A DNA stretch of 64,000 nt from an uncultured bacterium (GCA_964599375.1 CAZREW010000006.1:28285-92284); one strand, 5' to 3'. Shown: positions 23,451 to 41,548, numbered from the stretch's first letter. The notes: generated by a model from the letters alone, not told the origin. Translations and numbers: made by a program.

Positions 23451-23467
23451 GACTAGAGTCGTTCAAT

Positions 23468-23504
23468 GACCCCGGGGCCTCCCGGCTCCGGGGTCTTCTT
23501 TTCT
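23468..23504 (+). terminator. Intrinsic terminator after the OPT transporter gene
   Basis: GACCCCGG...CCGGGGTC 8-bp stem followed by TTCTTTTCT. It overlaps the ORF-track ATG at 23466, so that start is rejected. Confidence 0.6.
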
Positions 23505-23525
23505 ACAGACGGGACAATCAGCACG

Positions 23526-24053: not shown

Positions 24054-25874
24054 ATGAAACAGTACACTTGGGTTATCCTGTTGACAATAATCCTCTTGCC
24101 GGCGTGTGGCCGCGACACAGCACCCGTGCTCGCGCCATCCTTCCCACCGCAGGAGATATCTGCGGACAGCATACTCGTTGCACAATGCGGGCTTCTGGAA
24201 CAGGCTGTTGAAGTGTTCGCGGCGGTCGGCGATGGGGAATATCCGGAAAATATAGACATCGACACGCTCGATACCGGCGAATCGGTCCTCGACCTGATGC
24301 CGGACGGCGGCGTCTATGTCAATCCGTACACGGACAAGGAAACTGTTCCCGTAAACGGACAGGCGACTGGTCCCGGTGCGATCGCCTACGCCCCGATAGT
24401 CGTCGAAGAAACGATATACGGATACATGATCACTGGATTCGGAGAAGAATCGATAGAAGTTCAGCTCTCCAACCTCGCCTCTCCGGAGGAAGCGCTGGTC
24501 CTGGCCAACTGCAGGACGGCAGTCGAGATGCTGCGCGAGCAGCTTGAGGAGATCCTCGCTAATCCATATTCTGGCGATTACTCCAATCTTTACCCTCTCG
24601 ACGAGAAGAGCTGGGACAGGATGACTATCCTAAGCTCCTGGACCAAATACTACGGTAACACGTCTGACAACCCGTTCACCGGAGACGAGGAGCTCATCCT
24701 GAGGACCGCCGACAGTCCGGGCGAGACCGGATACGTATGTATCATGTCCGAAGGAAGAATATACGGGTATGTAGTCACAGGTCACGGGAAGGATTCGGTC
24801 ATCTTCGCCGAATCGAGCTTCGACTGCACGATTGAGGAGGCCGTGGTCATATCCAACTGCAGGACTCTCGAGAAGGCACTGGAAAGATTCGCCTGGAGAA
24901 ACGCCGGCCTGTATCCCTCCGACATCTACAACGACAGGAACGCCGACGGGAAGAGAGTCTTCGACTATCTCCACTCTTCTGCAGGCCTTCTCAACCCCTA
25001 TACCGGCCTGAGAACAGAGCCCTCAGCCAATACATCAGGCATGCCCGGCCAGGTCAGCTACGAAGCGATGGAGTATTTCGGCCTGAGGATGGGGTACCGG
25101 ATCAGGGGATTCGGAGAAGAGTCCCAGGTGCTGGAGCTCACCAATATCGGGACGGTCGAGGAGGCCACAATACGGTACAACTGCTACACCCTTATGGAAG
25201 CGGTCGAAGAATTCGCCGCTGATAACGGAGGAGTGTATCCTGAGGACCTGTTCGCAGACGAGGACATGTCGGGCGAGACGGTCGAGGACCTTCTCCCCCG
25301 CGGCAGGGCCCCCCTTAATCCTTATACCGGGGGAGATGACGGCCTGGTGAACCATACGGCCGTAAGGCCCGGCCAGACAGGATATGCCAGGATGACTGGA
25401 AGGTACTCATCATGGAACTCCGCGAGCGGGACAGAGACAGACAACTACGATCCGGTCTACGTCATCTCGGGCTTTTCCACGCATGGTCACGAGTTCATCA
25501 TATCCAGCGGACGGACCACGCCGGTGGAAGCGATCGTGATCTCTCATTGCAGGACGGTGCAGCTCGCCGTCGAGGAATTCGCCAGCCGAAACGGCGGGAT
25601 ATACCCAGGTAATACCGGCTGTGACTCCAGCTGGTACGGTGACACCGTGATCGACTTCCTACCGGGCCGGGCGCTCCTGGAGAATCCGACCACTGGAGCG
25701 GCCACCGAGCCGGTCGACGGCGCGGCGGCGACTTCAGGCCAGGTTGGGTTCATACCCGTCTGCCTGAACGGCATGAATGTCGGATACGTGATAACGGGAA
25801 CGGCCGAGGTATGCGGCCTCACTACTTGTACGATCTTCTCGGCACCTGATTCCGATCCTTATAAAGTTCGTTGA
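24054..25874 (+). CDS. Lipoprotein composed of five tandem ~110-aa pseudopilin (GspG/pilin-like) globular-domain repeats
   Basis: Signal peptide plus lipobox LLPACG. Five repeats each carrying xNCRTxxxAVEEFAxxNGGxYP ... NPYTG ... GY(V/M)ITG. This resembles the T2SS G / type IV pilin core (LExALDxYxxDNGxYP ... DPWGNPY) but lacks the N-terminal hydrophobic pilin helix. Confidence 0.7.
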   Translation: MKQYTWVILLTIILLPACGRDTAPVLAPSFPPQEISADSILVAQCGLLEQAVEVFAAVGDGEYPENIDIDTLDTGESVLDLMPDGGVYVNPYTDKETVPVNGQATGPGAIAYAPIVVEETIYGYMITGFGEESIEVQLSNLASPEEALVLANCRTAVEMLREQLEEILANPYSGDYSNLYPLDEKSWDRMTILSSWTKYYGNTSDNPFTGDEELILRTADSPGETGYVCIMSEGRIYGYVVTGHGKDSVIFAESSFDCTIEEAVVISNCRTLEKALERFAWRNAGLYPSDIYNDRNADGKRVFDYLHSSAGLLNPYTGLRTEPSANTSGMPGQVSYEAMEYFGLRMGYRIRGFGEESQVLELTNIGTVEEATIRYNCYTLMEAVEEFAADNGGVYPEDLFADEDMSGETVEDLLPRGRAPLNPYTGGDDGLVNHTAVRPGQTGYARMTGRYSSWNSASGTETDNYDPVYVISGFSTHGHEFIISSGRTTPVEAIVISHCRTVQLAVEEFASRNGGIYPGNTGCDSSWYGDTVIDFLPGRALLENPTTGAATEPVDGAAATSGQVGFIPVCLNGMNVGYVITGTAEVCGLTTCTIFSAPDSDPYKVR

Positions 25875-26770: not shown

Positions 26771-28658
26771 TCATACTCCCGAACAACGCGCTTGAGATAT
26801 TGATATCGTAGACATCGGTACCAGTGAATTCCATGATCAGGAAATCCGGACCGTACGACTTCACATCACCCGTATAGGGACTCCCGCAGATGTTGCTCTG
26901 CCTGATCCTGAGCGGGCCGAAATCGGCCGCGAGATCCAGCGATGTATATGAGTATTTCGGATCGACAGGCGTCACGCCCATGTCCTCGAAATACATAGTA
27001 GCCGCCCAGTCGGTAAAGAGCTCCTTGAAAGCGAAGCCGGTCACATACTCGATATTATCCGTGCCTGTCTTATTCGTCTGCACTATGTCGCGGAATATTC
27101 GATCGCCGAAACGGTCCCCGAGGTACCTGAAGAAGAGGAAACTTGCACCCCTCTCCTCGAGGTCGTCGCCTCCGTGGATCAGGGTGACATTGCCGGGATC
27201 GTTGAGGAAAAGGTTCGCCCGGCTGATATTGCTCCCATCGTGGCCGTTGAGGTCCTCGGCTATGTGAGCGAGCCCCTCGTCTACCCATAGCTCCGCCATA
27301 TACGCGCCGCTGTATCCGTTCCCGAAGATCAGCACCCGGTAGTTGAACATGATCATGTGTTCGAATTCGTGAGCGATCACGCCCACGATCACATCGAGAG
27401 CCTCGTCCTTGGGATGCACGTTCCCGTATAAACCGGTAGGATCGGGGACCATCGAATAGTATATCTCCATCCCGTTCGAAGCGCCTGTCGGAACGTATGC
27501 GGGCAACAGATCGCCCGGCATGAAGAAACCGGCTATATAGCCGGGAGTAGACCCGCCGGAAGGCGTCAGCTCGTTGACTACCGGCGTCAGCAGGATGACG
27601 ACTTTCCCGTCATGGTTGATGTCTGACTCTGACCCGAAACTCGAAGTATTGGTCGGATAGATATGATCCTCGAACTCCTGCCCCAGCGCCGCCGCCTCGT
27701 AATCGGTGATGCAGGAAACGTGCGTAGTCTGGTCGACGTAAAGAAGCGTATGCGTCCCCTCGTATTTAAGGTCAGCTGTCACTAGGGTAAAATCGGCAGG
27801 ATTGATAGTGCTGCCGTCGAAATTGCTGAAAACGAAGAACTCCTGCGCCTGCGGCTTAAGCATCGAAGACCGAGAGGGCGCAGGTTTCGTATAACCTTCA
27901 TCGATACCGGACTGCCCGCCGTGAAGAAGGCCGAGAGCTTCCTCCCACTTCTTCCGCTCGAACGATCTTGTGACCTCTCCGGACCCGGCAAGCAGAAGGG
28001 GGTCGAGCTTTATTGCGTCAGGACCGGCGTCAATTGCAGTATCAGGCCCGTCTGCTGGGGGGGCCGACGTGCAGGGTGTATTGTTGTCTACGGAATAGTT
28101 GACTGTCATATTCCTGTCGGGCGGCGTGGCGCTGTCGAACAGTATGAGGATGTATTCCTCGCCGGCCTGCAACGTCGAAAGAGAAAAATCATAATCCGAA
28201 TCGGCATAATAGATCTTCGCCACATCGCCACGGAGCAGCCTGATCGTGAAATCGAGCGAGTTCGAAGGGATCCTCGGCGGCGTGATATCAAAGGGTCCAC
28301 CGTAGACCGGGAATGGAGCCTCCACTCTGACTCCGCCGGTGAACGAGCCTTCAGGGACCTCTACCGTCAGGCTCGTGCGCGTCACCTCCGAGGGAACGGC
28401 GGTCCTGTTCGCGACGGAGCTTGAAAAGCCTGTAGCGGAAAATGTGACCAGATTCTGCGCGGGCTCTGCGCTGAAACCTTTCCCTTCGATCGTCACTACA
28501 TCCCCGGCGCTTGCCTGAGCCGGCGTTACCGAACTGATGGATATCTGCTCTCCGCCGCTCTGTGGATCATCACTGCAGCCTGACAGGCCGAACGCCGCGA
28601 CCACGAGCAGCAGGGAGTATACTGTGATTCCAGGGGATTTTGTTCCCAGATAACGCAT
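26745..28658 (-). CDS. Lipoprotein with N-terminal IPT/TIG-like domain and HExxH zinc-metalloprotease domain
   Basis: Start MRYLGTKSPGITVYSLLLVVAAFGLSGCSDD (lipobox LSGC; GAGGTAG RBS). ISISSVTPAQASAGDVVTIEGKGF is an IPT-like segment. VIAHEFEHMIMFN (HExxH) and GLAHIAE follow. Confidence 0.65.
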   Translation of the reverse strand: MRYLGTKSPGITVYSLLLVVAAFGLSGCSDDPQSGGEQISISSVTPAQASAGDVVTIEGKGFSAEPAQNLVTFSATGFSSSVANRTAVPSEVTRTSLTVEVPEGSFTGGVRVEAPFPVYGGPFDITPPRIPSNSLDFTIRLLRGDVAKIYYADSDYDFSLSTLQAGEEYILILFDSATPPDRNMTVNYSVDNNTPCTSAPPADGPDTAIDAGPDAIKLDPLLLAGSGEVTRSFERKKWEEALGLLHGGQSGIDEGYTKPAPSRSSMLKPQAQEFFVFSNFDGSTINPADFTLVTADLKYEGTHTLLYVDQTTHVSCITDYEAAALGQEFEDHIYPTNTSSFGSESDINHDGKVVILLTPVVNELTPSGGSTPGYIAGFFMPGDLLPAYVPTGASNGMEIYYSMVPDPTGLYGNVHPKDEALDVIVGVIAHEFEHMIMFNYRVLIFGNGYSGAYMAELWVDEGLAHIAEDLNGHDGSNISRANLFLNDPGNVTLIHGGDDLEERGASFLFFRYLGDRFGDRIFRDIVQTNKTGTDNIEYVTGFAFKELFTDWAATMYFEDMGVTPVDPKYSYTSLDLAADFGPLRIRQSNICGSPYTGDVKSYGPDFLIMEFTGTDVYDINISSALFGSMNAALIRIQ

Positions 28659-28813
28659 TTTATCTACCTCGGGCCGAGGACTTGCCGTGCGTGGCCGCGC
28701 GGATTGTGACGCCCCGCAGGGCCAGCAGATACAACTGTTCAGGAAGATAACAGTTTCGACCCGCCCTTTCAATCCCGACGGAAGCGCCCGCATGGCCAGA
28801 TTCTACGTAATAA

Positions 28814-28828
28814 GGCATATATCTTGCA
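28814..28828 (+). promoter_or_regulatory. Possible sigma-54 promoter (AGGCAT-N5-TTGCA)
   Basis: GG-N10-GC spacing is correct. The -12 TTGCA is perfect but the -24 is imperfect. Lies ~55 nt upstream of ATG 28883. Confidence 0.3.
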
Positions 28829-28882
28829 GTTAACCCCCTGAACCAGTACGCCCTGAACACATACTCGAACCAGGCAACCCGA

Positions 28883-30346
28883 ATGATATCACTTGAACTC
28901 GACATAATATGCTCTGACTCCGATGTCCTGGGGACCACAGCAACAGACTGCGCTGAATCAGGATGGGAAGTGTCGAAGTTCTCCAGCGTGAGCGATTTCG
29001 TATCGAAAAGAGAGAAATCGGCCCCGCCCGCACTTATATTTGCCGGATCGGAAGTCGCCGGAAACAAGGACATCACTCCGGACGTCAAGACTCTGATAAG
29101 CTGGCACGGCCGGAATCCCGCCACCCAGCTTATCCTGCTGATACCGGAGGGCCTGAAAAACGAGGACAATGTCGCGCTGAGCCTGGGTGCGCGGCACCAG
29201 CTTCACATGCCATACGAGAGACGGGGCCTTCATCTTATCCTCAGCCAGATCGCCAGTGGCCTGGGTAAGCGCAAGCTTGATGAGGCCATCCGGGAAAGAG
29301 TGGCTAAACCGGAAGGGTTCGATGACATCATTGGCGTCAGCGATGCAATGCAGGAAATAATCGCCCTGGCGATCAAGGTCGGAAAAAGCGACTGCACATC
29401 GGTCATGATCACCGGCGAGAATGGCACCGGCAAGGGAGCCCTCGCTGGAGCCATCCATCAGATAAGTGCCAGGTCCTCCGGGCCGCTCATAGAGGTCAAC
29501 TGCGCGGCGATCCCTGCCAAGCTGCTTGAAAGCGAGTTCTTCGGCTACGAGAAGGGTGCTTTTACCGATGCCAAGGAAAGAAAGATGGGGCTGTTCGAGG
29601 TCGCCAACGGGGGGTCTATATTTCTCGATGAGGTCGGTGAGATCGACTTCAACCTCCAGGCAAAGCTCCTCAAGTTCCTCGATTCGAGGACTATAAGGAG
29701 GGTCAGCGGCACCCAGTTCCTGCCCGTAGACGTCAGAGTGATCTCAGCTACAAACAGAGACCTGAAGGCTGACGTTGAACTCAAGCGGTTCCGGGCCGAC
29801 CTCTATTACAGGCTCAACGTCGTGGAAATAAGGATCCCTCCGCTTCGAAACCGCAGGGAGGATATCCGCCCCATCGCCGAGACGTACACGAAAAAGTTCT
29901 CCAGCCGCCTGAAGAAGGGGGGTGTCACCCTCTCGAAAGACGCTTTCTCGCTTCTCGAGCGATACTCATGGCCTGGTAACATCAGGGAGCTGATAAATCT
30001 CATCGAGCGCGCAGTCCTCCTCAACACGACCGGGACCATTCATGCTTCCGACCTGCCGATCGACACGGAGACCCGCATTGAGGAAACAACCTGCCATGTC
30101 AAGAAAGAGAACGGAACCCTGAAGATCGATATTCCACCCGAAGGAGTCAGCCTCGAGCAGGTTGAAAAGGCAGTGATCGTAGGGACCCTGCTCAGGACTG
30201 AGGGTAATATCACCCGCGCGGCCCACCTTCTTGGGGTAGAACGGGGAACGCTGAGATACAAGATGAAGAAACACGGAATAGACGCTCACGAGCTTAAGGA
30301 AAAAATCAAAACCGGCGAATATGAGCCGGCTTGTATAACAAACTGA
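28883..30346 (+). CDS. Sigma-54-dependent activator (EBP) with atypical receiver-like N-terminus; GAFTDA loop variant
   Basis: GENGTGKGA P-loop, GAFTDA in place of GAFTGA, RFRADLYYRL, C-terminal HTH (ITRAAHLLGVERGTLRYKMKK). Confidence 0.75.
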   Translation: MISLELDIICSDSDVLGTTATDCAESGWEVSKFSSVSDFVSKREKSAPPALIFAGSEVAGNKDITPDVKTLISWHGRNPATQLILLIPEGLKNEDNVALSLGARHQLHMPYERRGLHLILSQIASGLGKRKLDEAIRERVAKPEGFDDIIGVSDAMQEIIALAIKVGKSDCTSVMITGENGTGKGALAGAIHQISARSSGPLIEVNCAAIPAKLLESEFFGYEKGAFTDAKERKMGLFEVANGGSIFLDEVGEIDFNLQAKLLKFLDSRTIRRVSGTQFLPVDVRVISATNRDLKADVELKRFRADLYYRLNVVEIRIPPLRNRREDIRPIAETYTKKFSSRLKKGGVTLSKDAFSLLERYSWPGNIRELINLIERAVLLNTTGTIHASDLPIDTETRIEETTCHVKKENGTLKIDIPPEGVSLEQVEKAVIVGTLLRTEGNITRAAHLLGVERGTLRYKMKKHGIDAHELKEKIKTGEYEPACITN

Positions 30347-30618
30347 AAACACTGATAGTTACAGCTACAATATCTCACGCACTCGAAAAACTCCCCCGAC
30401 AGATTCAGAAATAATCCCAATCCGGTTTTTCGACCGGACCCTCCGTACCACTCTAATTCCGCAGACGATCACTTTTTCACGGCATCATAGACCCGTTTTT
30501 TCGAACTCGCATCTGCTTGCCTTGCAATGAGTTCCAGCCCGGCTATTTCTGACTGACAACATAAATTGACACGCCGGACCCGTCCAGCGACGCCCTCTGC
30601 CCGCCTGTTTTCGGCCCG

Positions 30619-30633
30619 TGGCACCCGCGTTGC
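30619..30633 (+). promoter_or_regulatory. Sigma-54 promoter (TGGCAC-CCGCG-TTGC), consensus match
   Basis: Perfect -24 and -12 elements with N5 spacing, 62 nt upstream of ATG 30695. Confidence 0.65.
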
Positions 30634-30694
30634 CTTATACCGGTGCAGAGATCGAAAGTAGTTTTTAACCAAAGACCCCAAGGAGGTGGGAGAA

Positions 30695-31246
30695 ATGTCA
30701 GGACGAACCATAGCCCACAAATTCCTCACCGTTTCAACCTTCCTCAGTGTACTGGCTGCCATGGGTTGTGGATCCTACTCTCCTGTAACCCCCTCACAGG
30801 ATGACACTACGCCCGGTGTTGAGTTCCCCGTTTTCGTCCAGGTTCTCACCACCTCCGCGGGATCTTCTGGTCGAGATATGATGCAGACCACCTCAACCTC
30901 CGTCTCCATGGTGATTTCAGCTGAACTGGGCGGGACTGTGACAAACGGCTACGTCAGTTTGTACTTCCCGCCCGGTGCCCTCGATGTGGACACCGAGATA
31001 ACCATGGACATGCCCATGTACCCTCAGGCAATGGTTGAGCTGGGCCCCCACGGCATAGAGTTCAACAAAGCCGTGATCATGACCCTGCCCCTGGACAAGC
31101 TCGACTCAGACGCGACATCCTACAGGACGCTCTGGAACAATGAGATCGAAGGGATATGGGTAGACATAGGTGGACACGTCGAAAACGGCAACATAGTCTC
31201 GAAACTCGAGCACTTCAGTGATTATGGATATTTAGATCAGGGTTGA
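30695..31246 (+). CDS. Hypothetical lipoprotein (sigma-54-dependent by promoter)
   Basis: GGAGGTGG RBS before ATG 30695. Lipobox AAMGCGS. Confidence 0.6.
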   Translation: MSGRTIAHKFLTVSTFLSVLAAMGCGSYSPVTPSQDDTTPGVEFPVFVQVLTTSAGSSGRDMMQTTSTSVSMVISAELGGTVTNGYVSLYFPPGALDVDTEITMDMPMYPQAMVELGPHGIEFNKAVIMTLPLDKLDSDATSYRTLWNNEIEGIWVDIGGHVENGNIVSKLEHFSDYGYLDQG

Positions 31247-31272
31247 TTTAAATAAGAAACCTCACTTCTCTT

Positions 31273-31300
31273 AAAACCCTCTCTTTTGAGAGGGTTTTTT
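31273..31300 (+). terminator. Intrinsic terminator
   Basis: AAAACCCTCTC-TTTT-GAGAGGGTTTTTT. Confidence 0.8.
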
Positions 31301-31337
31301 ATTGATTTTCTCAAAGTACTTCTTAAAATCCCATTCC

Positions 31338-34300
31338 ATGGTTGAGAAGTATGGATTTCCTTTAAGGTACAGCAAGTTATCGACACTGGGTTCTGGTGGA
31401 ATCGGAACGGTTTTCAAAGCTTTCGACTCCCAACTTGACAAAGAAATCGCCATAAAGATTCTGAATAATCTAGATCGCGATCTATCAGCTTCTTTAGAGA
31501 ACGAATTCTCCACGCTGATCTCGCTGAACCATCCCAATTTGATAAAGGTATATGATTTCGGTCAGAGTGATTCAGGGCATTCATACTTCACTATGGATTT
31601 AATTCATGGGCAAAATTTAAATGATTATTTCTCATCTTCTTTGAAAGTCAGTTCTACCACTGATATTCTCGTGGGCATTCTTGATGCCCTTAGCTATTTG
31701 TCAAAAAGAAACATAATACACGGAGATATCAAACCTGAGAACATACTCATTCCTGATGGAAACGATTCACACCCAGTGCTTGTAGATTTTGGGCTTGCTC
31801 TTATTGCAGATTCAAATCAAGACAAAGTGTTCGGGACACCAAGATTTCTTGCTCCGGAGATCCTGTTATCAAAACAGTATTCCTCAAAAAGCGATCTTTA
31901 TGCTCTTGGACACACATTTATAGAAAGCTTAACAAAGCACAAGACAGTACTTGCTCATGAGTTGACTGATAGTTATCTAAGCGATGCATATGAATCTCTA
32001 TGTTACCTCTTCGAAGAGAGGGACATTGAATATCCGAGGAATCTAGCTTCATTCATTGTCAGTCTCTCCAATCCATCTCTTTCTTTACGTCCAGACACTA
32101 TTTCACAAGCTATTCTTAAACTATCGACAATTTCTACGCCTTCATGCGAAGCAAACACAATTCTTAACCCTGAATACGTTGCTCGAGAAGAAATCGACAA
32201 TTCTATTGAAATATTTATAGATAAGAACAGTTTTGACAATAGATCTCTTTTACTTGAAGGCCCTATTGGTACCGGAAAGAGAACACTGATGGGAAGAGCT
32301 ATCAGTAAAGCTCAGTTATTGAAATTCAAGGTTTTAATGTATAGCGATATTCCTGAAGAAAGATTCTCTCTAAATGTTTTTATAGATTCGCTCTCAATGA
32401 ATCTGCCTGCTCCGCTGAGTAATAATTTGTTTGAACAACACAACCGACTTTTAAATAGCATCAAGAAGGCTGAAGCAACTCCAGACCTTGATAACCTGGG
32501 AGTAATTTATAGCAATATCATTGAACATATTTCGCTCCTTTCAAAGGAACAGCCGGTATTAATCGTTATTCCAAACATCGAAAGTCATGGAACTGATACC
32601 TTAAGATTTATCAAGCACTTAGTAGACGAAATAGACTATCTCGGCGCGAAGGCAAAGATTCTCTTATCTCATTCAACAGATCACATTCGTGACAACACTT
32701 TTTACGAACAACTAAGTTCGCTTAAACACAATCTATCTCTCCTACATATTCGAGGATTTAGTGCATCAGAAATAAAACAGTACTGTCACAATATTTTTGG
32801 ATGCGATTTGTTTACAAATGGAGAAATCAATTCCTTTTTGTCTATCACAAATGGGAATCCTCAATATCTTTTCGACTACTTAAACTACCTGATAATGAAC
32901 GGAATCATTACTAAGAATGAGCGAACATATTATGCGGACCATAAACAAATAAATAGGACATATTCTCTGACTAGAAATGATGTAATCGTTGATAGTATAA
33001 TTTCTCATTTACTCCCTGATGAATTGCATTTCCTTCAATTACTTTCTATTTATGATTATCCAATTGACATCACTCATATGAAATTTTTTATCTCCTATGA
33101 TCTGCCAACTATAATCGATACTTGTGAAATTGCATCATTAATAGAAACGCACAACGGCATAATATGTTTGAAGTCCCCAGCCTTTAAATATCACCTCAAT
33201 AATAATATTAATGATTCTTTACAAATATCGCTTAATCGAATCCTTGCTGATTATTCAGTTAAAGCTAACCCAAATAACTACGCATTAATAGCAAATCATT
33301 ATATCAAGGCGCATGCAATAGATGAGGCCTATGAATACGCAACCAGAGCATATGAAAAGCACCTTGCGCAACATGAGTATTATTCAGCCTATAATCTATT
33401 TGTTTCTCTTAGTAATTTGATTGAAGACATTAATAGTACAGAGATCAAAATTGATATATTGGAAAAATTGAGTTCTCTGGAGTTCACACTGGGGTATTCA
33501 GACGATTCTCTAAATAACTATTTAAAGCTAATAGATATATCTACTGACCAAATTTCTATTGCTAGGTATTACAACAAAATCGGGCGTATAGAGCGCTACT
33601 TCAGAGGAAATACGAATAAGGCAGTCGAATATTTTAATCGTGCTCTTGACATAGCCAAAAAGAATGCAGCAACTGAAGTTGAAGCCGAGGCATTGCTGTC
33701 TCTTGGACTCGCATTACAAAATGCTTCGTTTGTGGAAGCATCAGCCGATCTTTCTAAAGGAATTCTTTTAAATCAATATGTTCGTGCTTTAGGAATAGCT
33801 ATGCAATTGTACACTTTTTCAGGGAATTCAGAGAAATGCCAAACAATTGAGGTAGAACTTGATAGGTACCTCTCAACCGATGATCCAACTATTCTTTCAT
33901 ATATATACGATGCAAAATACCTATACTCATTCTATACAGGTGTCTATTCGGTAGCTGACACCATGCTTCGAAACCTTATCGATCTTGCAAAACGCTCATT
34001 TAATGAAACGGCGCGCATCCGACACCTGAATGCTCTGGGAAGCATATATTACTCTCAAGGCAAATTTAGGCTCCAAATCGATACATTAAGGAATGCTTAT
34101 CATCTTGTTAATAAATATCAATTCCCCCTGCATAGAATACTGACTCTTTCCAACATGGCATTAGCCCATGTTGCACTTGCAGAATATTCAATAGCCATTC
34201 GGTTGATTATCGAAGTTAGATCATACGCAGAAAAGCATAAGTTGTCTAATATACCAACTTACCATTATTCTATTGGAGCTGGAGCATTCATGCCACTCGG

Positions 34301-34934
34301 CAAACTACAAAACGTTAATTTTCATAGATATCTAGAGTTGCTCAAGGAAACAGCGGAAAAGTCCAAAAATATTATCAGCCTTGGCCACATGGATCTTAAA
34401 TATGGAGACTATTACTACTTTGCAGATCAGTCCAATGATTCGAAGAAACATTATTTAAAGTCAATCGACATTTTTCGAACCACGAACGCCAAAGACGACA
34501 TGCTGGAGGCTTTGCTGAAGCTTTCGCTTGTGCACAGGAACATTAACGATCACAAAATGGCGCATGACTATGCGAGGCAAGCGGCGAAGATATTCAGGGA
34601 GATTAATTGCGGGTATCTGAAGCCGCTGTACAGCTATGTCATGGCGTTGAACGAGTGCCACGATGATCCCGAGTCCCTGGCCCCGATGCTGGAGGCGATA
34701 AACGTCTCCAGGGCATTCGGGACCAGGGAGTGGACATGGCAGATCCAGTTTCACCTGGCGCGGCTGTACAGAGAGGCTGGCGACATCTCCAATTCAGTGA
34801 AATACTGCAGGGAATCGATCAACACCCTCAAGGAGATAACCGAATCGTTCGACGATCCGGACCAGACATCCTCCTACCTGCAGGTGCCGCTCAGGCGTCA
34901 GGTCTTCGATTTCGTGAAGTCCTTGAGATCCTGA
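31338..34934 (+). CDS. Hanks-type Ser/Thr protein kinase fused to STAND/AAA-like NTPase and TPR repeats (PknK-like architecture); AT-rich, mosaic GC
   Basis: Kinase motifs GSGGIGTVF, IAIKIL, HGDIKPEN (non-RD), DFGLA, GTPRFLAPE. P-loop LLEGPIGTGKRT. Long TPR-like C-terminus. The first ~3.15 kb is AT-rich and the last ~450 nt are GC-rich. ATG 31338 preferred over TTG 31302, which overlaps the upstream terminator. Confidence 0.8.
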   Translation: MVEKYGFPLRYSKLSTLGSGGIGTVFKAFDSQLDKEIAIKILNNLDRDLSASLENEFSTLISLNHPNLIKVYDFGQSDSGHSYFTMDLIHGQNLNDYFSSSLKVSSTTDILVGILDALSYLSKRNIIHGDIKPENILIPDGNDSHPVLVDFGLALIADSNQDKVFGTPRFLAPEILLSKQYSSKSDLYALGHTFIESLTKHKTVLAHELTDSYLSDAYESLCYLFEERDIEYPRNLASFIVSLSNPSLSLRPDTISQAILKLSTISTPSCEANTILNPEYVAREEIDNSIEIFIDKNSFDNRSLLLEGPIGTGKRTLMGRAISKAQLLKFKVLMYSDIPEERFSLNVFIDSLSMNLPAPLSNNLFEQHNRLLNSIKKAEATPDLDNLGVIYSNIIEHISLLSKEQPVLIVIPNIESHGTDTLRFIKHLVDEIDYLGAKAKILLSHSTDHIRDNTFYEQLSSLKHNLSLLHIRGFSASEIKQYCHNIFGCDLFTNGEINSFLSITNGNPQYLFDYLNYLIMNGIITKNERTYYADHKQINRTYSLTRNDVIVDSIISHLLPDELHFLQLLSIYDYPIDITHMKFFISYDLPTIIDTCEIASLIETHNGIICLKSPAFKYHLNNNINDSLQISLNRILADYSVKANPNNYALIANHYIKAHAIDEAYEYATRAYEKHLAQHEYYSAYNLFVSLSNLIEDINSTEIKIDILEKLSSLEFTLGYSDDSLNNYLKLIDISTDQISIARYYNKIGRIERYFRGNTNKAVEYFNRALDIAKKNAATEVEAEALLSLGLALQNASFVEASADLSKGILLNQYVRALGIAMQLYTFSGNSEKCQTIEVELDRYLSTDDPTILSYIYDAKYLYSFYTGVYSVADTMLRNLIDLAKRSFNETARIRHLNALGSIYYSQGKFRLQIDTLRNAYHLVNKYQFPLHRILTLSNMALAHVALAEYSIAIRLIIEVRSYAEKHKLSNIPTYHYSIGAGAFMPLGKLQNVNFHRYLELLKETAEKSKNIISLGHMDLKYGDYYYFADQSNDSKKHYLKSIDIFRTTNAKDDMLEALLKLSLVHRNINDHKMAHDYARQAAKIFREINCGYLKPLYSYVMALNECHDDPESLAPMLEAINVSRAFGTREWTWQIQFHLARLYREAGDISNSVKYCRESINTLKEITESFDDPDQTSSYLQVPLRRQVFDFVKSLRS

Positions 34935-35266
34935 TCCTGGTCCGCGTATCTTCTGGTCCTCAGGAAGGGCGCAACGAATGAGCTGACAAGTATCAACGCG
35001 CCCGCGGACAACGTGTCTTCCACGAACATGCTTGCCACTATTGCGATAATAAGGACCGTCATCGACCATCGATATCCCTTTAACCGCCTGATGACACCCC
35101 TCGAGGTGAAATCGCCGAACAGGAAGAGCGACAGAGCCAGCAGCGGCATAAGGAACAGGTACATCCTTTCACCGGACATACTGCTCGAACTCAGCAGGTC
35201 GACTGTCACTATCAGGATGAAACAGAACAGGTAGCAATAGACGAATCTTGTTGAAGTCTTCATCAT
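34898..35266 (-). CDS. Small hypothetical membrane protein
   Basis: 122 aa, ~3 TM. Overlaps the kinase 3' end by 37 nt. Weak RBS. Confidence 0.35.
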   Translation of the reverse strand: MMKTSTRFVYCYLFCFILIVTVDLLSSSSMSGERMYLFLMPLLALSLFLFGDFTSRGVIRRLKGYRWSMTVLIIAIVASMFVEDTLSAGALILVSSFVAPFLRTRRYADQDQDLKDFTKSKT

Positions 35267-35950
35267 TCACCAACCCATATATACGGTAAAGGCGCAAGAG
35301 ATCATCGCCACGACCAGGGATCCGGTACAGCATTTGGCCGTGCAGGGGCCCCAGGCGGGCCCGGTGATCCAGCATACCGTCGCGCATCCCGAGCAGCCGG
35401 CAACAAACCGGCCGGTGACACACCGCCAGTAACGCTTGCTGGCTTCGCTTCGCTCGATGAGCTCGAGCTTGAGACCCTGGCTAGCCTCATCACCGAGCAT
35501 CGAAAGACCGGTCCTTTCATCTATCGGATGGGCGATCTGGTATTCTTCACATTCGTAGTACTCGGCGGCCGTGACCGCGCATCCCTCATCACCGCGGAAA
35601 TATTCGATAATGGCAACCCTGGAATCATCCCCCGGGACCGAGCATGGGATAAGCGTCATGTGCCCGATCTTTCCCGTGGCCGGATCGACTGCCTTGAAGT
35701 GGGCCGCGTCGCCGGACCAGACCTGATAGCCCTTCTCCTCGAGCAGCCTGTCGAATATCGAGTGCCATGGAGTTTCCCTGAACGAAGCGACTTCACTTGC
35801 GGTCCGGGTCTCGTCGTAGCTCACTACCAGCCTGTCCTCCAGTTTTGTATCGGGTTCAGCGGGACCGGCTGGATCTGGCGATTTCTCGCATGAGACGGCC
35901 AGGGCCAGGATCATCGCGAACAGCAGGAAGAGAAAACCTTTCGATGTCAT
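35267..35950 (-). CDS. Hypothetical lipoprotein with Cys-rich C-terminus
   Basis: GGAGGA RBS 4 nt before ATG. Lipobox LAVSCEK. C-terminal CxxC-rich segment. Confidence 0.6.
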   Translation of the reverse strand: MTSKGFLFLLFAMILALAVSCEKSPDPAGPAEPDTKLEDRLVVSYDETRTASEVASFRETPWHSIFDRLLEEKGYQVWSGDAAHFKAVDPATGKIGHMTLIPCSVPGDDSRVAIIEYFRGDEGCAVTAAEYYECEEYQIAHPIDERTGLSMLGDEASQGLKLELIERSEASKRYWRCVTGRFVAGCSGCATVCWITGPAWGPCTAKCCTGSLVVAMISCAFTVYMGW

Positions 35951-36503
35951 GTCATCCTCCAGAAAAAGGTGAATCGTCCCCCGCTTCTCAAGTCAATGAT
36001 CCAAAGGAATCGCCTCCTCAGTTCGCGCACCGATATAAGACATAAAATAAGAACCACCTTATCTACGGCATTGTTGCGCGATGGGGGGACTCAGAGCGGC
36101 ACCGTAGAAAGCGGATGGTTCTTATTTGAAACACCTTACCTATTGGTCCGGCCTTTCAGAAAGCGTCGCTGTGACGCGGTTTGATACATATGCCAATATC
36201 ACTATCCGTGCCATATTTGCCGGCTGTCCGGACGTCATGGCTCCGCGCCGGGAATGTCTCTGCAATGTCCTGTATATTATTAAGTTACGTTTTCGCGTCG
36301 CTCGATCGGTCTGAGCTGCCTGGATATCCGCGGGACATCGCCTCTGTTCACGGTGTTTCCCGGCATCGGACATGATGACTGGCAACCTTTTGTAACTCGG
36401 GATCTTGCCAGACAAGGCAAGGGTGTTCACGGCATGAACAACATGAACATATCGGGCGTGAACACATTCGGATATTGCGGTAATTGCGGGGCAGTGGGAT
36501 ATA

Positions 36504-38996
36504 TCACGTGCGGCGGTAGTACCTGTCGAGGCCCGTCTTCTTCAGCTCCTTGTACAGCTTGCCTCTAGAGATCCCCAGCCAGCGCGCCGCCGCGCTCTTG
36601 TTGCCCCTGCAGATGTTCATCGCGCTCTCGATCCTGCGCCTGCTGCTGTCGCCGTTTCCCTGGAAATCCAGATCATGCGTACCTGCCGGAACTCCAGTCA
36701 TCCTGTCAGGCAGCATCTCGATCGTGATGGGAGAATCGCTCGCATAGCAGCTCAACCTGTCAGCGATCGATATCAGCTCTCTGACGTTGCCGGGCCAATG
36801 ATATTTCTGGAAGACAGAGAGCACGCCCCGGTCGATCCGCACCGTTCTTCCGCCGTTACCGTTGCCGTTTCCACAGAGGCGCCAGACCATAAGGGGGATG
36901 ATATCCTCACGGCGGTCACGCAGCGGAGGGATATGGATCCTTTCCGAGTTGATCCTGAAGAAAAAATCCTCCCTGAGCGACAAATCGCTCAGTTTGCTTC
37001 CTAGATCCTGATTCGTGGCTGAGACCAGTTTTATATCGACCTCTTGCTCGCCGTTCTCCCCGAGCCTTCTGATCCGCCCTTCCTGCAGCACCCTGAGCAA
37101 CTTGGCCTGGTGAAGCGTCGACAGCTCCCCCACTTCATCGAGAAAGAGCGTGCCTCCACTCGCTTCCTCGAAGAAGCCACGCCTGTCAACGACGGCGCCG
37201 GTGAACGAGCCTTTCCTGTGCCCGAAGAATTCGCTCTCGAAGAGATGGTCCGGGATCGCAGCGCAGTTGACGGCTACGAAGGGACCCGAAGCCCTCTCGC
37301 TCGAATTGTGGATCAGCCTGGCGACAAGCTCCTTTCCCGTTCCGGTCTCTCCCGTCACCAGGACCGGCCCCCTATATGACGCCGCGAACTGTATCCTCTC
37401 CCAGACATCGTGCATGACGGGCGATACGGCTACCATTCCGTTGCAGACCTTGTAGTCGCTCGAGAAACCTACCTCTATCAGATCTGAGTCAGTTTCACCG
37501 CTCTGGTACAGCCTGGCGGGCACCGCGCCGCCCCGTCTTTCGTGGCCGAGCAGGCTGTCTACCCGATCGACCATGAGCTGTGCGTTCATACCGGCGAAAA
37601 GATGGCGGGCTTCCCAGAGCAGGCTCCAGGGCTCAACCGCCTTGCTGTTTCCCGTGATCTCCGCCTTTTGGGCCTTATCCGTCCTCGACAAAAGGGTCTC
37701 CGCATATATGAGGCAGGTCCTGGCCAGCTCGAATGTGCTTCCCGATCTCCTGATAAGAGCCTGCGCGCGCTCAAAAAGTGCCTTTACGGTGTCGAGATCC
37801 ACGCGGCAGGCTTCCGCCCTGCCCATGGCCCTGAAGACAAGACCCAGCTCAAGTGGAGCGTCCAGTCCCCCGGCAATGCTCTCTGCATCCTCGAGACGAT
37901 CCCTTGCCGCTTTAATATCGCCCCGCGCGATCTCGAGCTCGCCCGTCTTCCTGGCGATCTCAGCGGCCACGTCACCGACGGGGGCAATCTCCGACACGAT
38001 GTCCCGAGCCCGGGCCAGGCAGTTCTGCGCCATCACCAGATCGCGCCTGCTGATGTGTATCGAAGCTATGCCGGACAGGGACAGGGCCAGTTCTCGCCTG
38101 TAGCCCTGCTCCTTCGCGAGCCGGGAGGCGTCCGAAAAGAGCTCGAGCGCCTCATCGAGGGCATCGCGCCTGCTGGCCGCGTTTCCCAGGGCAATAAGGC
38201 ACCTGCACCTGCCGATATGCCAGTTTACACGCTCGAAGAGCGAAGTGGCCTTGATGAACGACCGCTCGGCCGAGTCGCTCTCGCCCATGTGGAACTGCGT
38301 TATTCCGAGATTGAGCAGGGCTGCCGCGAGGCCGTACTCATCATCGTTCTTCGAGCATGCGGCAGCCGCCCTTCTGAGGTCGTCGGCGGCTTTTCTCATG
38401 AAGCCGAGCCTTCTGAGGACGAGCCCCATCATCGTCAGGACCCTGGCTCTCAACTTCCAGCTCGACACCGAAGTCGTAAGCCCTAGGGCGGTCTCGAGGA
38501 TCTCCCTGGCACGCAGGGTATCATCGAGGAAATAGCAGCAGGCTCCCTCGATAAGGTATTTCTCCCCCGCCAGCGTTCCGTCGAGACAGTTCTCGACCGA
38601 CCCATCCATATCATCAAGCTCCTGCAGCGCGGCGCGGTATTCTCCCTGCCTCCTGAGGATATTCGCCCTGATCACGGCTGCTTCATAACGCTCGCAGCAG
38701 GCGTCGACCTCGACTGACCGGATAAGCTCTGCAAGCATGTCGAGGTATATCGAGCTTTCGTCGAATCCGCTCAGATAGTAGGAGTTCCTGGCAGCGAGAA
38801 GGAGGACGCGCGCTTCCATCTCGAACGGGACAGGCTCCCGCTCGATGGCGGACAATGCCTCTCTCGTCGCTATAAGCGCACTCCTGTAGTCACCTGTGGC
38901 CTGGTGGCCCTGCGCTTCGGTTATGTACCTGTCCACGGTCTCGTGTCGTTTACGCATGGTATCGGTCGGCCCCGTGCTATCTGAATATCGGTCCAA
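36504..38996 (-). CDS. Sigma-54-dependent activator with large N-terminal TPR-repeat domain (TPR-AAA+-HTH)
   Basis: ETGTGKE, GSFTGA, FFFRINSERIHIPPLRDRRED, C-terminal HTH. ~480-aa N-terminal region of TPR-like helical repeats. Confidence 0.8.
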   Translation of the reverse strand: MDRYSDSTGPTDTMRKRHETVDRYITEAQGHQATGDYRSALIATREALSAIEREPVPFEMEARVLLLAARNSYYLSGFDESSIYLDMLAELIRSVEVDACCERYEAAVIRANILRRQGEYRAALQELDDMDGSVENCLDGTLAGEKYLIEGACCYFLDDTLRAREILETALGLTTSVSSWKLRARVLTMMGLVLRRLGFMRKAADDLRRAAAACSKNDDEYGLAAALLNLGITQFHMGESDSAERSFIKATSLFERVNWHIGRCRCLIALGNAASRRDALDEALELFSDASRLAKEQGYRRELALSLSGIASIHISRRDLVMAQNCLARARDIVSEIAPVGDVAAEIARKTGELEIARGDIKAARDRLEDAESIAGGLDAPLELGLVFRAMGRAEACRVDLDTVKALFERAQALIRRSGSTFELARTCLIYAETLLSRTDKAQKAEITGNSKAVEPWSLLWEARHLFAGMNAQLMVDRVDSLLGHERRGGAVPARLYQSGETDSDLIEVGFSSDYKVCNGMVAVSPVMHDVWERIQFAASYRGPVLVTGETGTGKELVARLIHNSSERASGPFVAVNCAAIPDHLFESEFFGHRKGSFTGAVVDRRGFFEEASGGTLFLDEVGELSTLHQAKLLRVLQEGRIRRLGENGEQEVDIKLVSATNQDLGSKLSDLSLREDFFFRINSERIHIPPLRDRREDIIPLMVWRLCGNGNGNGGRTVRIDRGVLSVFQKYHWPGNVRELISIADRLSCYASDSPITIEMLPDRMTGVPAGTHDLDFQGNGDSSRRRIESAMNICRGNKSAAARWLGISRGKLYKELKKTGLDRYYRRT

Positions 38997-39387
38997 ACAG
39001 CATCTGCAGCGTAATCAACAATTTAGTTTTCACGCGGGAACGCCCCGCCCCTGCCTTGCGACCGGTTTCCCGGTGCCCCCCTGTGATTGCGCTGTCCACG
39101 CCACCTGTCGTGGACGAATATGACCCTCCGATAAGATCCCGGGAGAGCCCGGGCTCCACAAATGGGTCCACTGTCAGATGCGGATCCTCTCCTGGATCTG
39201 CCCCGACGGTTTCGCCGAAGATCGTATATTTTCCGGCGATGGGAGACCTGGCATGCACCGCCCCGGAGAGCGGAAACAGAAGTGTGGCGGCGATAAGGGC
39301 CAGGACTGAAAATGAAAAAAGGCGCCTGATACTGCTTCTCATAAGCAACGCTCCTGTCGCTTTCTGTCGCGACCGGATGTCGATCAT
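38977..39387 (-). CDS. Possible small secreted protein
   Basis: An internal start MRSSIRRLFSFSVLALIAATLLFPLSGAVHA gives a signal peptide. Gly/Ser/Thr-rich. Could be a spurious ORF in the promoter region. Confidence 0.3.
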   Translation of the reverse strand: MIDIRSRQKATGALLMRSSIRRLFSFSVLALIAATLLFPLSGAVHARSPIAGKYTIFGETVGADPGEDPHLTVDPFVEPGLSRDLIGGSYSSTTGGVDSAITGGHRETGRKAGAGRSRVKTKLLITLQMLFGPIFR

Positions 39388-39752
39388 CTTAGTGAAAAAC
39401 CCTGTATCAAACCGCCATGGGCAATCGCTTTCTTGTCATGTAATTTTATCATATAATGGGTATCCGGGTCAACCCGCCTCAAATTTTAATGCACGCGTAA
39501 AAGAAATATTCTTGGGTGTAATATTTTTCTATAATTAGTGGAAACTATTATTTACATTTGTTATAATCATTTTACAGTTGTGTATCTCATTATGTTATTG
39601 ATTGTTAACAAACGTTTCCGGTGGTGAGGTAAATTGTTCTTTACCAATAAATGGGATGCCCGTGGTGAATCCGGGCGGCCGCGTGTGGTGTCCTCTGGTT
39701 TATCATATTGCAATAAATGCAGTTGCAAGCATTGTTTCCGGCCCACAAATGA

Positions 39753-39767
39753 TGGCACGCACCTTGC
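39753..39767 (+). promoter_or_regulatory. Sigma-54 promoter (TGGCAC-GCACC-TTGC), consensus match
   Basis: Perfect -24/-12 elements with N5 spacing, inside a ~500-nt AT-rich leader, ~130 nt upstream of ATG 39899. Confidence 0.6.
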
Positions 39768-39898
39768 GGAAGTAATCAATGCCAGTAAACTGTACTTTAC
39801 ACCATGAGTCAGCACCGCCCGGACTGCATCAATTATCGATGTAACCTGTTGAAAAGACAGGGCCGGGGAAAAACCGGATAAAGGGGGTTTCCGGTAAG

Positions 39899-41548
39899 AT
39901 GAGCACGAAAAAGAAGGACCCGACGAAGGATTTTTACGAGGATGTCGAGAGTGACCTCGACCATCTCGAGGGATCAGTAGCGGTCAGACAGAGCAAGGAT
40001 ATTTCGGGCCAGCTCGCTGAAAGCAGGCATCGCGTGCAAAAGCTCGAGATGCTGACAGAGATCACGCAGGCGATGAACTCGACCCTCAATCTCAACGAGC
40101 TCCTGTCGCACATCGTCGATTCGACGATCAAGATCGCCGACATGGACCGCGGGTTCCTGATGCTCAGGAACAAGGCCGGCGAGCTCGAGTTCCGGATAGC
40201 GAGAAGCAGCAGGCAGCAGAATCTCGGCGAAAACGACTTCGAGGTCAGCCATACGATCATAGGGGAAGCCGCAGACAAGGGCAAACCCCTCTTCATCTCC
40301 AATCTGGACAAGAACGGCAGGTACAAGGACCAGGAGAGCGTGCTCGACCTGCAGCTCAAGACTGCCGTCTGCCTCCCCCTTATACGCGACGATGTGGTGA
40401 TCGGCGTCATCTATACCGACGCCAGCAGGCTCAGTATCGAGATCGAGAAGGAGGACATGCCGATCTTCGAGGCATTTGCCGTCCAGGCTGCGATCGCGAT
40501 CGAGAACGCGCGGCTTCACGGCGAGCTGCTTCTTTCCAAGGAGAACCTCACAAGGGAGAACCTCGAGCTCAGGGCGGTCCTTTCCGAGAAGTACGAATTC
40601 TCCGGTATAATCGGCAAGAGCAAGGCGATGCAGGAGATCTTCACCACGATAAGGAAGATCTCCCCGTTCGATACGACCGTCCTGATCACCGGTGCCACAG
40701 GGACAGGCAAGGAGCTCATTGCCAAAGCCATCCATTTCAACGGTCCCCGCAAGACGAATCCTCTGGTCACGATAAACTGCGGAGCGATGGCGCCCGAGCT
40801 CCTCGAGAGTGAGCTCTTCGGACACAAGAAGGGGTCGTTCACAGGCGCAGTCAGCGACAAGCCCGGACTGTTCGAGACCGCAAGCGGCGGCACCCTCTTT
40901 CTAGACGAGATAGGCGACATGCCGCAACCGCTGCAGGTAAAGCTCCTGCGCGCCCTTCAGGAAGGTGAGATAAGGAGGATCGGGGAGAATACAAACCGTC
41001 ACGTGGATGTCCGGGTCATAGCAGCGACAAACCGCGACCTCAAGGAGGACATCGAGGCCGGCAGGTTCCGCCAGGACCTCTACTACAGGCTCAACGTGGT
41101 CCCCATCACCATACCGCCTCTGAATGAGAGGGGGGAGGATATACTGCCCCTGACTCAGCATTTCCTCGAGAAGTACTCCGCGAAGATGAACAAGGGCGAA
41201 GTCGGGATAGCCCCCGATGTCATGAAGATGATACTTGCCAATCCGTGGCCCGGTAACGTAAGGGAGCTCGAGAACACTGTCGAGAGGGCGCTCGCGCTCT
41301 GCGGCGACTCCACCACCCTGTCGATGATCCATTTCCCGCAACTCGGTCACGGCGGCCTAATACTAGGCGGCGTGGATTCTGGACGTTCGCTGAAGGAAAA
41401 GATGCGGGTGGTCGAGAAGCAGTTCATCATCGAGGCCCTGGAGGAAACGGGCGGAAAGATAACTAGGGCGGCGGAACTGCTTGATGTGACACGTCAGCAC
41501 CTTCATAATAAGATCCGGCAGTACGAGCTCAACAGAAAGAAGCGCTGA
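39899..41548 (+). CDS. Sigma-54-dependent activator with N-terminal GAF domain
   Basis: GAF-like region (GFLMLRNKAGELEF...VCLPLIRDDVVIGVIYTD), GATGTGKE, GSFTGA, RFRQDLYYRL, C-terminal HTH. Confidence 0.85.
   Translation: MSTKKKDPTKDFYEDVESDLDHLEGSVAVRQSKDISGQLAESRHRVQKLEMLTEITQAMNSTLNLNELLSHIVDSTIKIADMDRGFLMLRNKAGELEFRIARSSRQQNLGENDFEVSHTIIGEAADKGKPLFISNLDKNGRYKDQESVLDLQLKTAVCLPLIRDDVVIGVIYTDASRLSIEIEKEDMPIFEAFAVQAAIAIENARLHGELLLSKENLTRENLELRAVLSEKYEFSGIIGKSKAMQEIFTTIRKISPFDTTVLITGATGTGKELIAKAIHFNGPRKTNPLVTINCGAMAPELLESELFGHKKGSFTGAVSDKPGLFETASGGTLFLDEIGDMPQPLQVKLLRALQEGEIRRIGENTNRHVDVRVIAATNRDLKEDIEAGRFRQDLYYRLNVVPITIPPLNERGEDILPLTQHFLEKYSAKMNKGEVGIAPDVMKMILANPWPGNVRELENTVERALALCGDSTTLSMIHFPQLGHGGLILGGVDSGRSLKEKMRVVEKQFIIEALEETGGKITRAAELLDVTRQHLHNKIRQYELNRKKR

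Follow-up and report, generated by a model that had tools for sequence, protein, structure and literature searches.

What does it mean when the base composition of a bacterial genome breaks abruptly, not between genes, but inside a reading frame? The question is raised by one strand of DNA from an uncultured bacterium (GCA_964599375.1 CAZREW010000006.1:28285-92284), 64,000 nucleotides (nt) long and called here the window, in which an AT-rich tract begins at the 3′ end of a small lipoprotein gene, p186, runs through most of a gene for a 1198-amino-acid (aa) protein kinase and stops before that gene ends. A strong anomaly in GC content and codon usage is usually read as a sign of recent horizontal transfer. 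The reading preferred here, at a probability of roughly 70%, is that the AT-rich stretch represents a hypervariable cassette of the replacement type (~31146-34484), located at a fixed site that is conserved in the phylum, with a specificity function for which a place in signalling is proposed; the anomaly would then mark an ancient balanced polymorphism at a conserved locus. The parts on which the argument rests are the following.

31146..34484, plus strand: proposed hypervariable allele cassette, made of the last ~33 p186 codons, a terminator and kinase codons 1-1049; AT-rich from ~31214.
31338..34934, plus strand: kinase gene, ATG start, 1198 aa and stop; Hanks-type non-RD Ser/Thr kinase, STAND NTPase and TPR-like solenoid.
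31368..32132, plus strand: kinase domain, residues ~11-265 (Pfam and AlphaFold model), with a GC content at third codon positions (GC3) of 0.30-0.42.
32226..33203, plus strand: STAND NTPase module, with a P-loop alpha/beta core at ~297-470 and helical and winged-helix-like segments at ~476-622.
33213..34484, plus strand: variable part of the TPR-like sensor solenoid, residues ~626-1049, the part in which alleles diverge most.
34485..34931, plus strand: constant C-terminal module, residues 1050-1198, the last eight solenoid helices; host-like codons, GC3 0.77.

A first-pass annotation of the window had described an AT-rich island, filled by a single 1198-aa open reading frame (ORF; 31338-34934) in which the composition changes, and on all of these points it holds. 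In 300-nt windows, the interior of the stretch (31250-34450) has a mean GC of 0.363 (range 0.30-0.40), against 0.587 (standard deviation 0.045) in the remaining 1202 windows; positions 31214-34479 stand at 36% GC and the rest of the window at 59%. Only one other stretch, at 39301-39800, falls below 0.42. Maximum-likelihood composition borders lie at 31214 on the left (interval 31130-31243) and at 34476 on the right. Within the kinase frame, GC3 is 0.33 over codons 1-1047 and 0.77 over codons 1048-1198, with the change-point at 34479 (2-lnL interval 34458-34485; log-likelihood gain 54.9). In the 43 other genes of the window GC3 is 0.754 ± 0.059, and at the minimum 0.64. Codon usage in the 5′ part is approximately the inverse of that of the host (TTA rises from 1% to 21%, CAA from 7% to 77% and ATT from 5% to 41%), and in the 3′ part it is host-like. 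Amino acids with AT-rich codons (FYMINK) are also commoner in the 5′ part (0.34 versus 0.24).

The borders acquire their meaning from contigs of the window's own population, recovered by exact look-ups of two flanking proteins and coming from several JGI samples at 99.1-99.97% nt identity. One of them, L173, differs from the window by six mismatches over 11,466 nt (45950 down to 34485) and is otherwise a 99.95% identical strain, with a constant C-terminal module of 100% protein identity. Upstream of 34485, identity drops abruptly to ~57% in nucleotides and 43-44% in amino acids, the frame continues, and the encoded protein is homologous, in DNA of 35% GC. The first identical base, 34485, opens codon 1050 (N-A-K-D-D) and lies within the GC3 change-point interval. 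L177, from a different sample, ends 4 nt beyond the junction with bases of the L173 type, and in L168, a 75%-identical relative, the alignment begins at 34486. Three independent contigs thus stop or switch within 2 nt of one site. On the left, L169 follows the window over 26947-31145 with 12 mismatches, and then accumulates 26 in the stretch 31146-31222 at its end. The window allele itself is present, at 99.97% identity, in two further contigs, L170 and L172. At least two alleles of the cassette therefore co-occur in one near-clonal population, with ~44% protein identity where both are known and 99.9% identity in the flanks, and the composition change-points coincide with both borders of the cassette. 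A database search with the fragment of the alternative allele returned no matches.

Assemblies also tend to break here. Short-read contigs from a range of samples and metagenome-assembled genomes end at the borders or just inside them in L009, L010, L016, L026, L089, L091, L102, L125, L168, L169 and L173-L177. Ten of 11 partial contigs start at kinase residues 824-1042, contigs of the window's population end at 31227, 34485 and 34578, and residues 1048-1198 searched alone retrieve three fragments only, from contigs that start at the junction. A collapse of coverage is unlikely at 36% GC, and these breaks would be better accounted for by an assembly graph that branches at the points of allele divergence. 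As a consequence, most assemblies of this phylum hold only part of the gene or none of it, and too little of its diversity has been sampled.

The genealogy of the alleles was compared with that of their surroundings in nine sequences of the window clade, residues ~887-1049 representing the variable side and 1050-1198 the constant side. In all nine, the nearest neighbour differs between the two sides, and the identity matrices are uncorrelated (Mantel r = -0.29). The window and the alternative allele of L173 are 99% identical on the constant side and 43% on the variable side; the corresponding values are 92% and 40% for L009 and P0004, and 74% and 65% for P0003 and P0004. The same incongruence appears in five fully assembled genes, where P0002 falls with P0004 and the window for the constant module (83-85%) and the flanks, but with P0001 and P0003 over residues 1-1048 (68-69% versus 57-61%). 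Between the window and the related locus L001, flanking proteins are 70-93% identical and kinase residues 1048-1198 are 83% identical, against only 54% for residues 1-1047. The constant module thus diverges at the rate of the flanks. Four-fold sites tell a similar story for L001 and L002, with an identity of 0.43 in the cassette, 0.70 in the constant module and 0.53-0.77 in the flanks. The GC content of the cassette does not track that of its host (0.364 in a 0.586 host, 0.39 in 0.545 and 0.40 in 0.517). As allele relationships are unlike those of the flanks, the alleles must be older than the species or be moving between them.

How such a state could arise can be sketched. Alleles would be swapped by ordinary homologous recombination, with crossovers in the body of p186 on the left and in the constant C-terminal TPR module on the right; crossovers placed in conserved flanks would make the borders razor-sharp and put them inside reading frames. 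Balancing selection, of the negative frequency-dependent kind, probably acts on a specificity function and thereby preserves the polymorphism.

A purely vertical history with a conserved trough was an interim reading of this locus, and was overturned by the population contigs. In its strict form, it supposes that the 5′ part of the gene evolves fast and that selection keeps it AT-rich (rare codons of the host or AT-rich DNA might, for example, hold a costly STAND kinase at a low level), and that the allele switches are assembly chimeras of related species living side by side. Several observations favour it and weigh, to that extent, against exchange of a cassette. The alternative allele is known from contig ends only (353 nt in L173, 4 nt in L177 and 82 nt in L169), and a de Bruijn mis-join at the conserved junction may explain these three contigs. 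Three deep clades are congruent between cassette and flanks, so that exchange, or the retention of ancestral alleles, may be limited to related lineages. L012 and L025 belong to a clade with a shallow trough, in which the cassette evolves no faster than its flanks. When the window is compared with L001, synonymous divergence is the same throughout (0.41 in the 5′ part, 0.44 in the 3′ part and 0.38-0.41 in downstream genes). The inverted codon usage fits selection, as does the wide gap between a cassette at 36% GC (four-fold sites, 29%) and intergenic DNA at 53%. Against strict vertical inheritance stand the L001 and L002 four-fold identities and the convergence of three independent contigs on one junction; a chimera would moreover need another organism with an identical constant module beside a different 5′ part. 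The incongruence of the five fully assembled genes, from independent assemblies, stands whatever the joins at the contig ends may be. We therefore consider strict vertical inheritance quite improbable.

Exchange between cassette alleles also has to be set against a single horizontal acquisition, ancient or recent, from an AT-rich donor (a genomic island), or a recent gene fusion. The contrast in composition and the mismatch in codon usage speak for such an event, and little else in the wider comparison does. The closest database proteins (P0001-P0004) are 57-61% identical and all ~1198 aa long, and a second tier of full-length relatives stands at ~30%; metagenome and genome scans gave no close full-length relatives beyond the 57-61% set. 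The full-length relatives lie on contigs labelled Krumholzibacteriota or unclassified, and among protein and contig matches none was found in another named phylum. Nine loci share one gene order, namely a TIG-domain protein (TIG682), a sigma-54 activator (bEBP487), the ~180-aa lipoprotein (p186) and the kinase, and no second genomic location of the kinase gene was seen among the loci recovered. Searches around the AT-rich stretch for flanking direct repeats, tRNA genes and Rfam matches all gave nothing, and the neighbouring ORFs examined (ORF and Pfam searches) include no integrase or transposase, in agreement with the first-pass annotation. The trough is a general property of the gene. In all eight full-length loci, whose hosts range from 43% to 66% GC, neighbouring genes exceed the first 87% of the kinase gene in GC3 and are matched or exceeded by its last 13%. 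Between deep clades four-fold sites are saturated, their observed identity being that expected from composition, and the trough nevertheless persists, which therefore indicates an ongoing force, not a relic of import.

Fusion meets a further obstacle in the structure of the protein. In the AlphaFold model, helical hairpins run uninterrupted from residue 626 to 1196, and the composition break falls where helix 1032-1049 turns into helix 1052-1068. This point is internal to the solenoid rather than a boundary between domains, which argues against fusion. The C-terminal 149 aa align with the same family throughout. Acquisition from a donor or fusion is hence barely credible. The first-pass annotation had offered homologous replacement of the 5′ part by a foreign allele, or a recent fusion, as causes of the break. 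The fusion fails; replacement is upheld by the breakpoints of L173 and L169 and by the decoupled alleles, and a recent single import from a foreign phylum is not, in view of relatives confined to Krumholzibacteriota or unclassified contigs. The same annotation had named synteny in relatives and shared best hits of both halves as findings that would tell against it. Both are observed, and allelic replacement survives as an ancient, recurrent polymorphism.

In a few members of the family the frames are interrupted, in the kinase or p186 genes of L013 (10001-13647) and L088 (7757-11377) and in the p186 region of L025. One MFD sample is the source of both L013 and L025, and the interruptions are either sequencing frameshifts at AT homopolymers or real pseudogenes.

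Why the cassette is AT-rich is a separate problem. Simple relaxation does not predict a cassette whose GC content is so far below that of intergenic DNA. Strand-specific deamination is ruled out by the symmetry of its four-fold sites (A 0.35, T 0.36, G 0.14 and C 0.15). Protein conservation does not suffice to explain the recovery of GC3 at the 3′ end, the kinase domain being as conserved as the C-terminus (66-78% identical between window-clade alleles) and yet low in GC3; along the protein, conservation and GC3 are weakly correlated. A control against the same explanation is provided by a 606-aa neighbour, which evolves nearly as fast (60% identity to L001) with a GC3 of 0.69. This secreted protein (24054-25874) has internal repeats and no Pfam match and is the fastest-evolving neighbour. 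Conversion biased towards GC is one proposed reason for the higher GC of recombining bacterial genes (PMC4450053). Most likely, the AT-richness reflects AT-biased mutation left unopposed, as alleles so divergent would seldom meet a partner with which GC-biased gene conversion could take place. A possible alternative cause, in view of the low GC relative to intergenic DNA, is selection, either for codons rare in the host or for AT-rich DNA as such. As its border inside a frame is known to single-nucleotide precision, the locus offers a clean natural test case for escape from conversion versus selection.

Sigma-70-like promoter matches are frequent in this region, with 19 in 30200-36200 against 11.2 ± 3.3 in shuffled sequences. 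Thirteen of the 19 are antisense and nearly all lie inside the AT-rich cassette (31302-34478), an enrichment expected for AT-rich DNA in a GC-rich genome and a possible source of spurious transcription. An antisense ORF in the GC-rich 3′ end (34461-34754, minus strand) was considered and rejected; it is a codon-aligned frame of the kind expected from high GC3, and is broken in the low-GC locus L004.

What does the gene encode, and is it maintained? Shuffled sequences of the same composition contain ~70 in-frame stops and the real frame none, and the gene is therefore maintained under purifying selection. The kinase motifs and the P-loop reported earlier are confirmed. Pkinase (PF00069) matches residues 11-235 with E = 4.8e-42 (144.6 bits versus a cut-off of 31.7), and the protein has the motifs GSGGIG, IAIK (K40), HGDIKPEN, DFG and APE, which vary little or not at all among the 22 sequences of a family alignment. 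The catalytic loop HGDIKPEN (31719-31742) is of the HGD, hence non-RD, type in 21 of the 22 members, P0008 having HSD. The Walker A motif GPIGTGKRT (G308-K314) is invariant in the same alignment; AAA_16 and NPHP3_N match residues 297-431 weakly, under the Pfam cut-offs. The Walker B segment, VLIVIPNIE, lies at residues ~407-415 (the site is also given as 32598-32615, in the region of residues ~421-426). Its Asp is replaced by Asn in the window and in P0001-P0003 and by Thr in P0004, and is kept in 15 of 17 more distant relatives, P0012 having Asn and P0014 Glu. Judged from these replacements, hydrolysis by the NTPase switch may be different in the window clade. Further downstream, TPR_12 (66.2 bits versus 30.1, E = 3e-18), TPR_10 and TPR_8 all score above their Pfam cut-offs.

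The AlphaFold model (mean predicted local distance difference test, pLDDT, 84.4) contains the kinase, the alpha/beta NTPase core (303-470), helical and winged-helix-like segments and the solenoid. Its best fold match in the PDB by Foldseek is the STAND-TPR protein 6mfv (E = 6e-13), followed by kinases; a sequence search of the PDB with the non-kinase part gave no match. With a P-loop core, helical and winged-helix parts and a repeat sensor, the modelled protein qualifies as a STAND NTPase by architecture. The likeness to PknK and MalT proposed in the first-pass annotation is one of architecture. At the level of sequence, TPR_MalT matches weakly (31.1 bits versus a Pfam cut-off of 45) and no PknK or MalT model of NCBIfam matches. 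No helix-turn-helix (HTH) or Rap-type domain was found by Pfam or NCBIfam. The protein has neither a signal peptide nor a membrane segment and is therefore cytoplasmic.

If a cassette of this kind is maintained for specificity, what is being specified? The surroundings of the gene give the main indications.

30686..31246, plus strand: p186, gene of a 186-aa ZU5-like lipoprotein; lipobox LAAMGC, conserved synteny, short ZU5 match.
30619..30634, plus strand: sigma-54-type promoter-like site TGGCAC-N5-TTGC, one mismatch, ~50 nt upstream of p186.
31273..31298, plus strand: intrinsic-terminator hairpin between p186 and the kinase gene.
28883..30346, plus strand: sigma-54 enhancer-binding protein, 487 aa, immediately upstream and conserved in nine loci.
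19757-21235, minus strand: sigma-54 enhancer-binding protein.
36504-38996, minus strand: sigma-54 enhancer-binding protein with TPR_MalT.
39899-41548, plus strand: sigma-54 enhancer-binding protein with GAF.
42083-43093, minus strand: sigma-54 enhancer-binding protein.
34898..35263, minus strand: convergent 121-aa gene in the constant flank; its 3′ end overlaps the kinase stop by 37 nt.
35267-35950, minus strand: 227-aa lipoprotein-like protein, convergent to the kinase gene, with a Cys-rich hydrophobic C-terminus (CSGCATVCWITGPAWGPCTAKCCTG...).
Orthologues of p186: L001 9360-9908, L002 1107-1655, L004 9370-9909 and L006 9313-9945.

The hairpin at 31273-31298 is the terminator that had been noticed before. 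The kinase gene has sigma-54 activators on both sides, and in other bacteria fusion proteins such as P0029 unite Pkinase, AAA_16, TPR, GAF, Sigma54_activat and HTH_8 in one chain. Most likely, the kinase gene sets specificity in sigma-54-linked signalling, and the 487-aa activator is the likely output partner. The sigma-54 pattern is not enriched over the window (14 matches versus 17 expected), and position alone argues for the site at 30619-30634.

Other features of the neighbourhood deserve mention. Five sigma-54 enhancer-binding proteins in ~23 kb (19757-43093) represent an unusual density. The AT-rich patch at 39301-39800 (0.36-0.38 GC) is intergenic DNA in front of the GAF/sigma-54 activator gene (39899-41548). 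Within it, positions 39753-39768 match a sigma-54-like promoter; another such match, with two mismatches, is found at 36198-36213 on the minus strand. The 227-aa and 121-aa genes, whose products have no Pfam match, are conserved downstream in the window clade only. An OPT-family oligopeptide transporter followed by a PqqD-like protein occupies 21426-23918, the transporter being 93% identical to that of L001. The two genes are adjacent also in L001 and L006, and the transporter gene lies upstream of the kinase gene in the window, L001 and L006. PqqD-like proteins represent a peptide-binding domain known from pathways for ribosomally synthesized and post-translationally modified peptides.

In the lipoprotein p186, ZU5 (PF00791) matches at 23 bits (cut-off 21), and it matches all five orthologues tested. 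Orthologues with an intact 3′ end carry the lipobox and a C-terminal HFS[DE][YF]G motif followed by a variable tail of 6-13 aa (HFS in eight of nine; L025 is frameshifted). In the window, HFS is encoded at 31211-31219 and the tail at 31217-31243 (SDYGYLDQG); the tails of L001, L002 and L006 read SEYGASPFG, SDYAISPHG and SDYGYLDEG. HFS is the autocleavage motif of PIDD and Nup98 (PMC3210808), and ZU5 autopeptidases process bacterial surface proteins and occur in bacterial conflict systems (PMC3482391). On these motifs, p186 is a candidate self-cleaving pro-peptide. The position of the left border places its tail inside the cassette together with the putative receptor.

It is tempting to propose a pherotype-like pair, with the p186-tail peptide as signal and the cytoplasmic STAND kinase as receptor, the two travelling as one cassette. 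p186 would cleave itself at HF|S and free a short, allele-specific C-terminal peptide, which would be re-imported, possibly via the neighbouring OPT transporter. The TPR sensor would bind the peptide, nucleotide-dependent assembly would activate the kinase, and the activated kinase would act on the flanking sigma-54 activators to elicit sigma-54-dependent transcription. The proposal is tentative, and the odds lean somewhat against it. The kinase and NTPase domains, for which no co-variation with a ligand need be expected, also belong to the variable unit, and the tail of the window is nearly the same as that of the distant L006, although the two kinases are only 25-41% identical. The ZU5 match of p186 spans only 20 residues, its single-sequence structure model (pLDDT 32) is unusable, and a profile search of the PDB reaches the ZU5 domain of Ankyrin-2 at only E = 0.98. 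More doubtful still is the broader notion that Krumholzibacteriota possess a previously undescribed peptide-based system of cell-to-cell signalling or kin discrimination, in which tail and receptor would be ancient trans-species 'pherotypes'. A literature search gave nothing on this gene in Krumholzibacteriota. In this conserved regulatory neighbourhood, the finding points to a single gene as the determinant of strain-level specificity, and the proposed pair of signal and receptor makes this a concrete hypothesis open to testing.

The same cassette could serve another purpose. The kinase gene may encode an innate-immune (conflict) sensor of the NLR or Avs type, its hypervariability being driven by phages or competitors and not by self-signalling; this is the main rival reading of the function, and it would change the selective agent and the output but leave the cassette structure as it is. 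The effector-STAND-TPR architecture fits, with the 6mfv fold match supporting the STAND-TPR part, and so do hyperdivergent alleles in near-identical backgrounds, given that hyperdivergent alleles and AT-richness are typical of defence loci. The kinase is non-RD across the family, and non-RD kinases are associated with pattern-recognition signalling in eukaryotes; the link of ZU5 autopeptidases to conflict systems points the same way. In PADLOC, the kinase domain matches mad6 (1e-52) and PD-T4-6 (1e-44). However, these matches, like that to MkoA, cover the generic kinase domain only (~10-286), and among the 25 families listed of 35 none extends beyond residue ~286 into the STAND or TPR parts. 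Defence genes are usually patchy in presence and absence, and this gene occupies one position, flanked by regulators, in every locus recovered. Moreover, fusions tie the architecture to sigma-54 transcription activators, and p186, exported as a lipoprotein, is no obvious partner for a cytoplasmic protein. An immune sensor is thus unlikely, and specificity in sigma-54-linked signalling is the preferred function for the cassette.

Comparison with known systems places the locus more precisely. From a classical horizontally acquired island it differs in its conserved synteny and in lacking repeats, a tRNA gene and, among the ORFs examined, mobility genes. Avs and bacterial NLR-like proteins share with it the effector-STAND-TPR design and strain-level variability; it departs from them in that PADLOC matches its kinase domain only, in its single conserved position next to regulators and in the fusions of its architecture to sigma-54 activators. 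RRNPP receptors offer an analogy only, as the protein has no HTH or Rap-type domain and its neighbour is a 186-aa lipoprotein, not a small pro-peptide ORF. The kinase is of the Hanks type, like PknB and StkP, and the order of effector, P-loop NTPase and TPR solenoid is that of the STAND-TPR proteins (MalT; Pyrococcus PH0952, PDB 6mfv) and of PknK from M. tuberculosis. It differs in having no DNA-binding domain, and at the sequence level the searches gave no membership in the PknK or MalT families; to our knowledge, allelic hypervariability is not a described feature of proteins of this type.

Closer parallels exist at the level of the locus. Replacement islands, such as those for O-antigen or capsule, the central region of fliC and the target-recognition domains of hsdS, combine a fixed position, divergent versions and sharp borders, as seen here. 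Such islands have a GC content below that of the genome and are exchanged by homologous recombination. Here, the replaced unit centres on a single cytoplasmic signalling gene and not on a structure of the cell surface, with the right border inside the coding frame of that gene. Pherotype loci (Bacillus comQXP, Staphylococcus agr and PlcR-PapR) are similar in being signalling loci found at the same place in all strains, in having a hyperdivergent block that holds the signal part and the receptor sensor between near-identical neighbours, and in the co-occurrence of variants in one habitat. In comP and agrC, borders lie inside genes and the output end of the receptor is conserved. Clusters of comQ are 65-70% identical while gyrA is ~100% identical (PMC4408185). 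The differences concern the components: a cytoplasmic kinase-STAND-TPR receptor in place of a membrane histidine kinase or HTH regulator, the tail of a ZU5-like lipoprotein as candidate signal in place of a small pro-peptide ORF, and catalytic kinase and NTPase domains within the cassette. Collectively, this is a polymorphism of the pherotype or replacement type, here found in an uncultured phylum and built on a new protein architecture.

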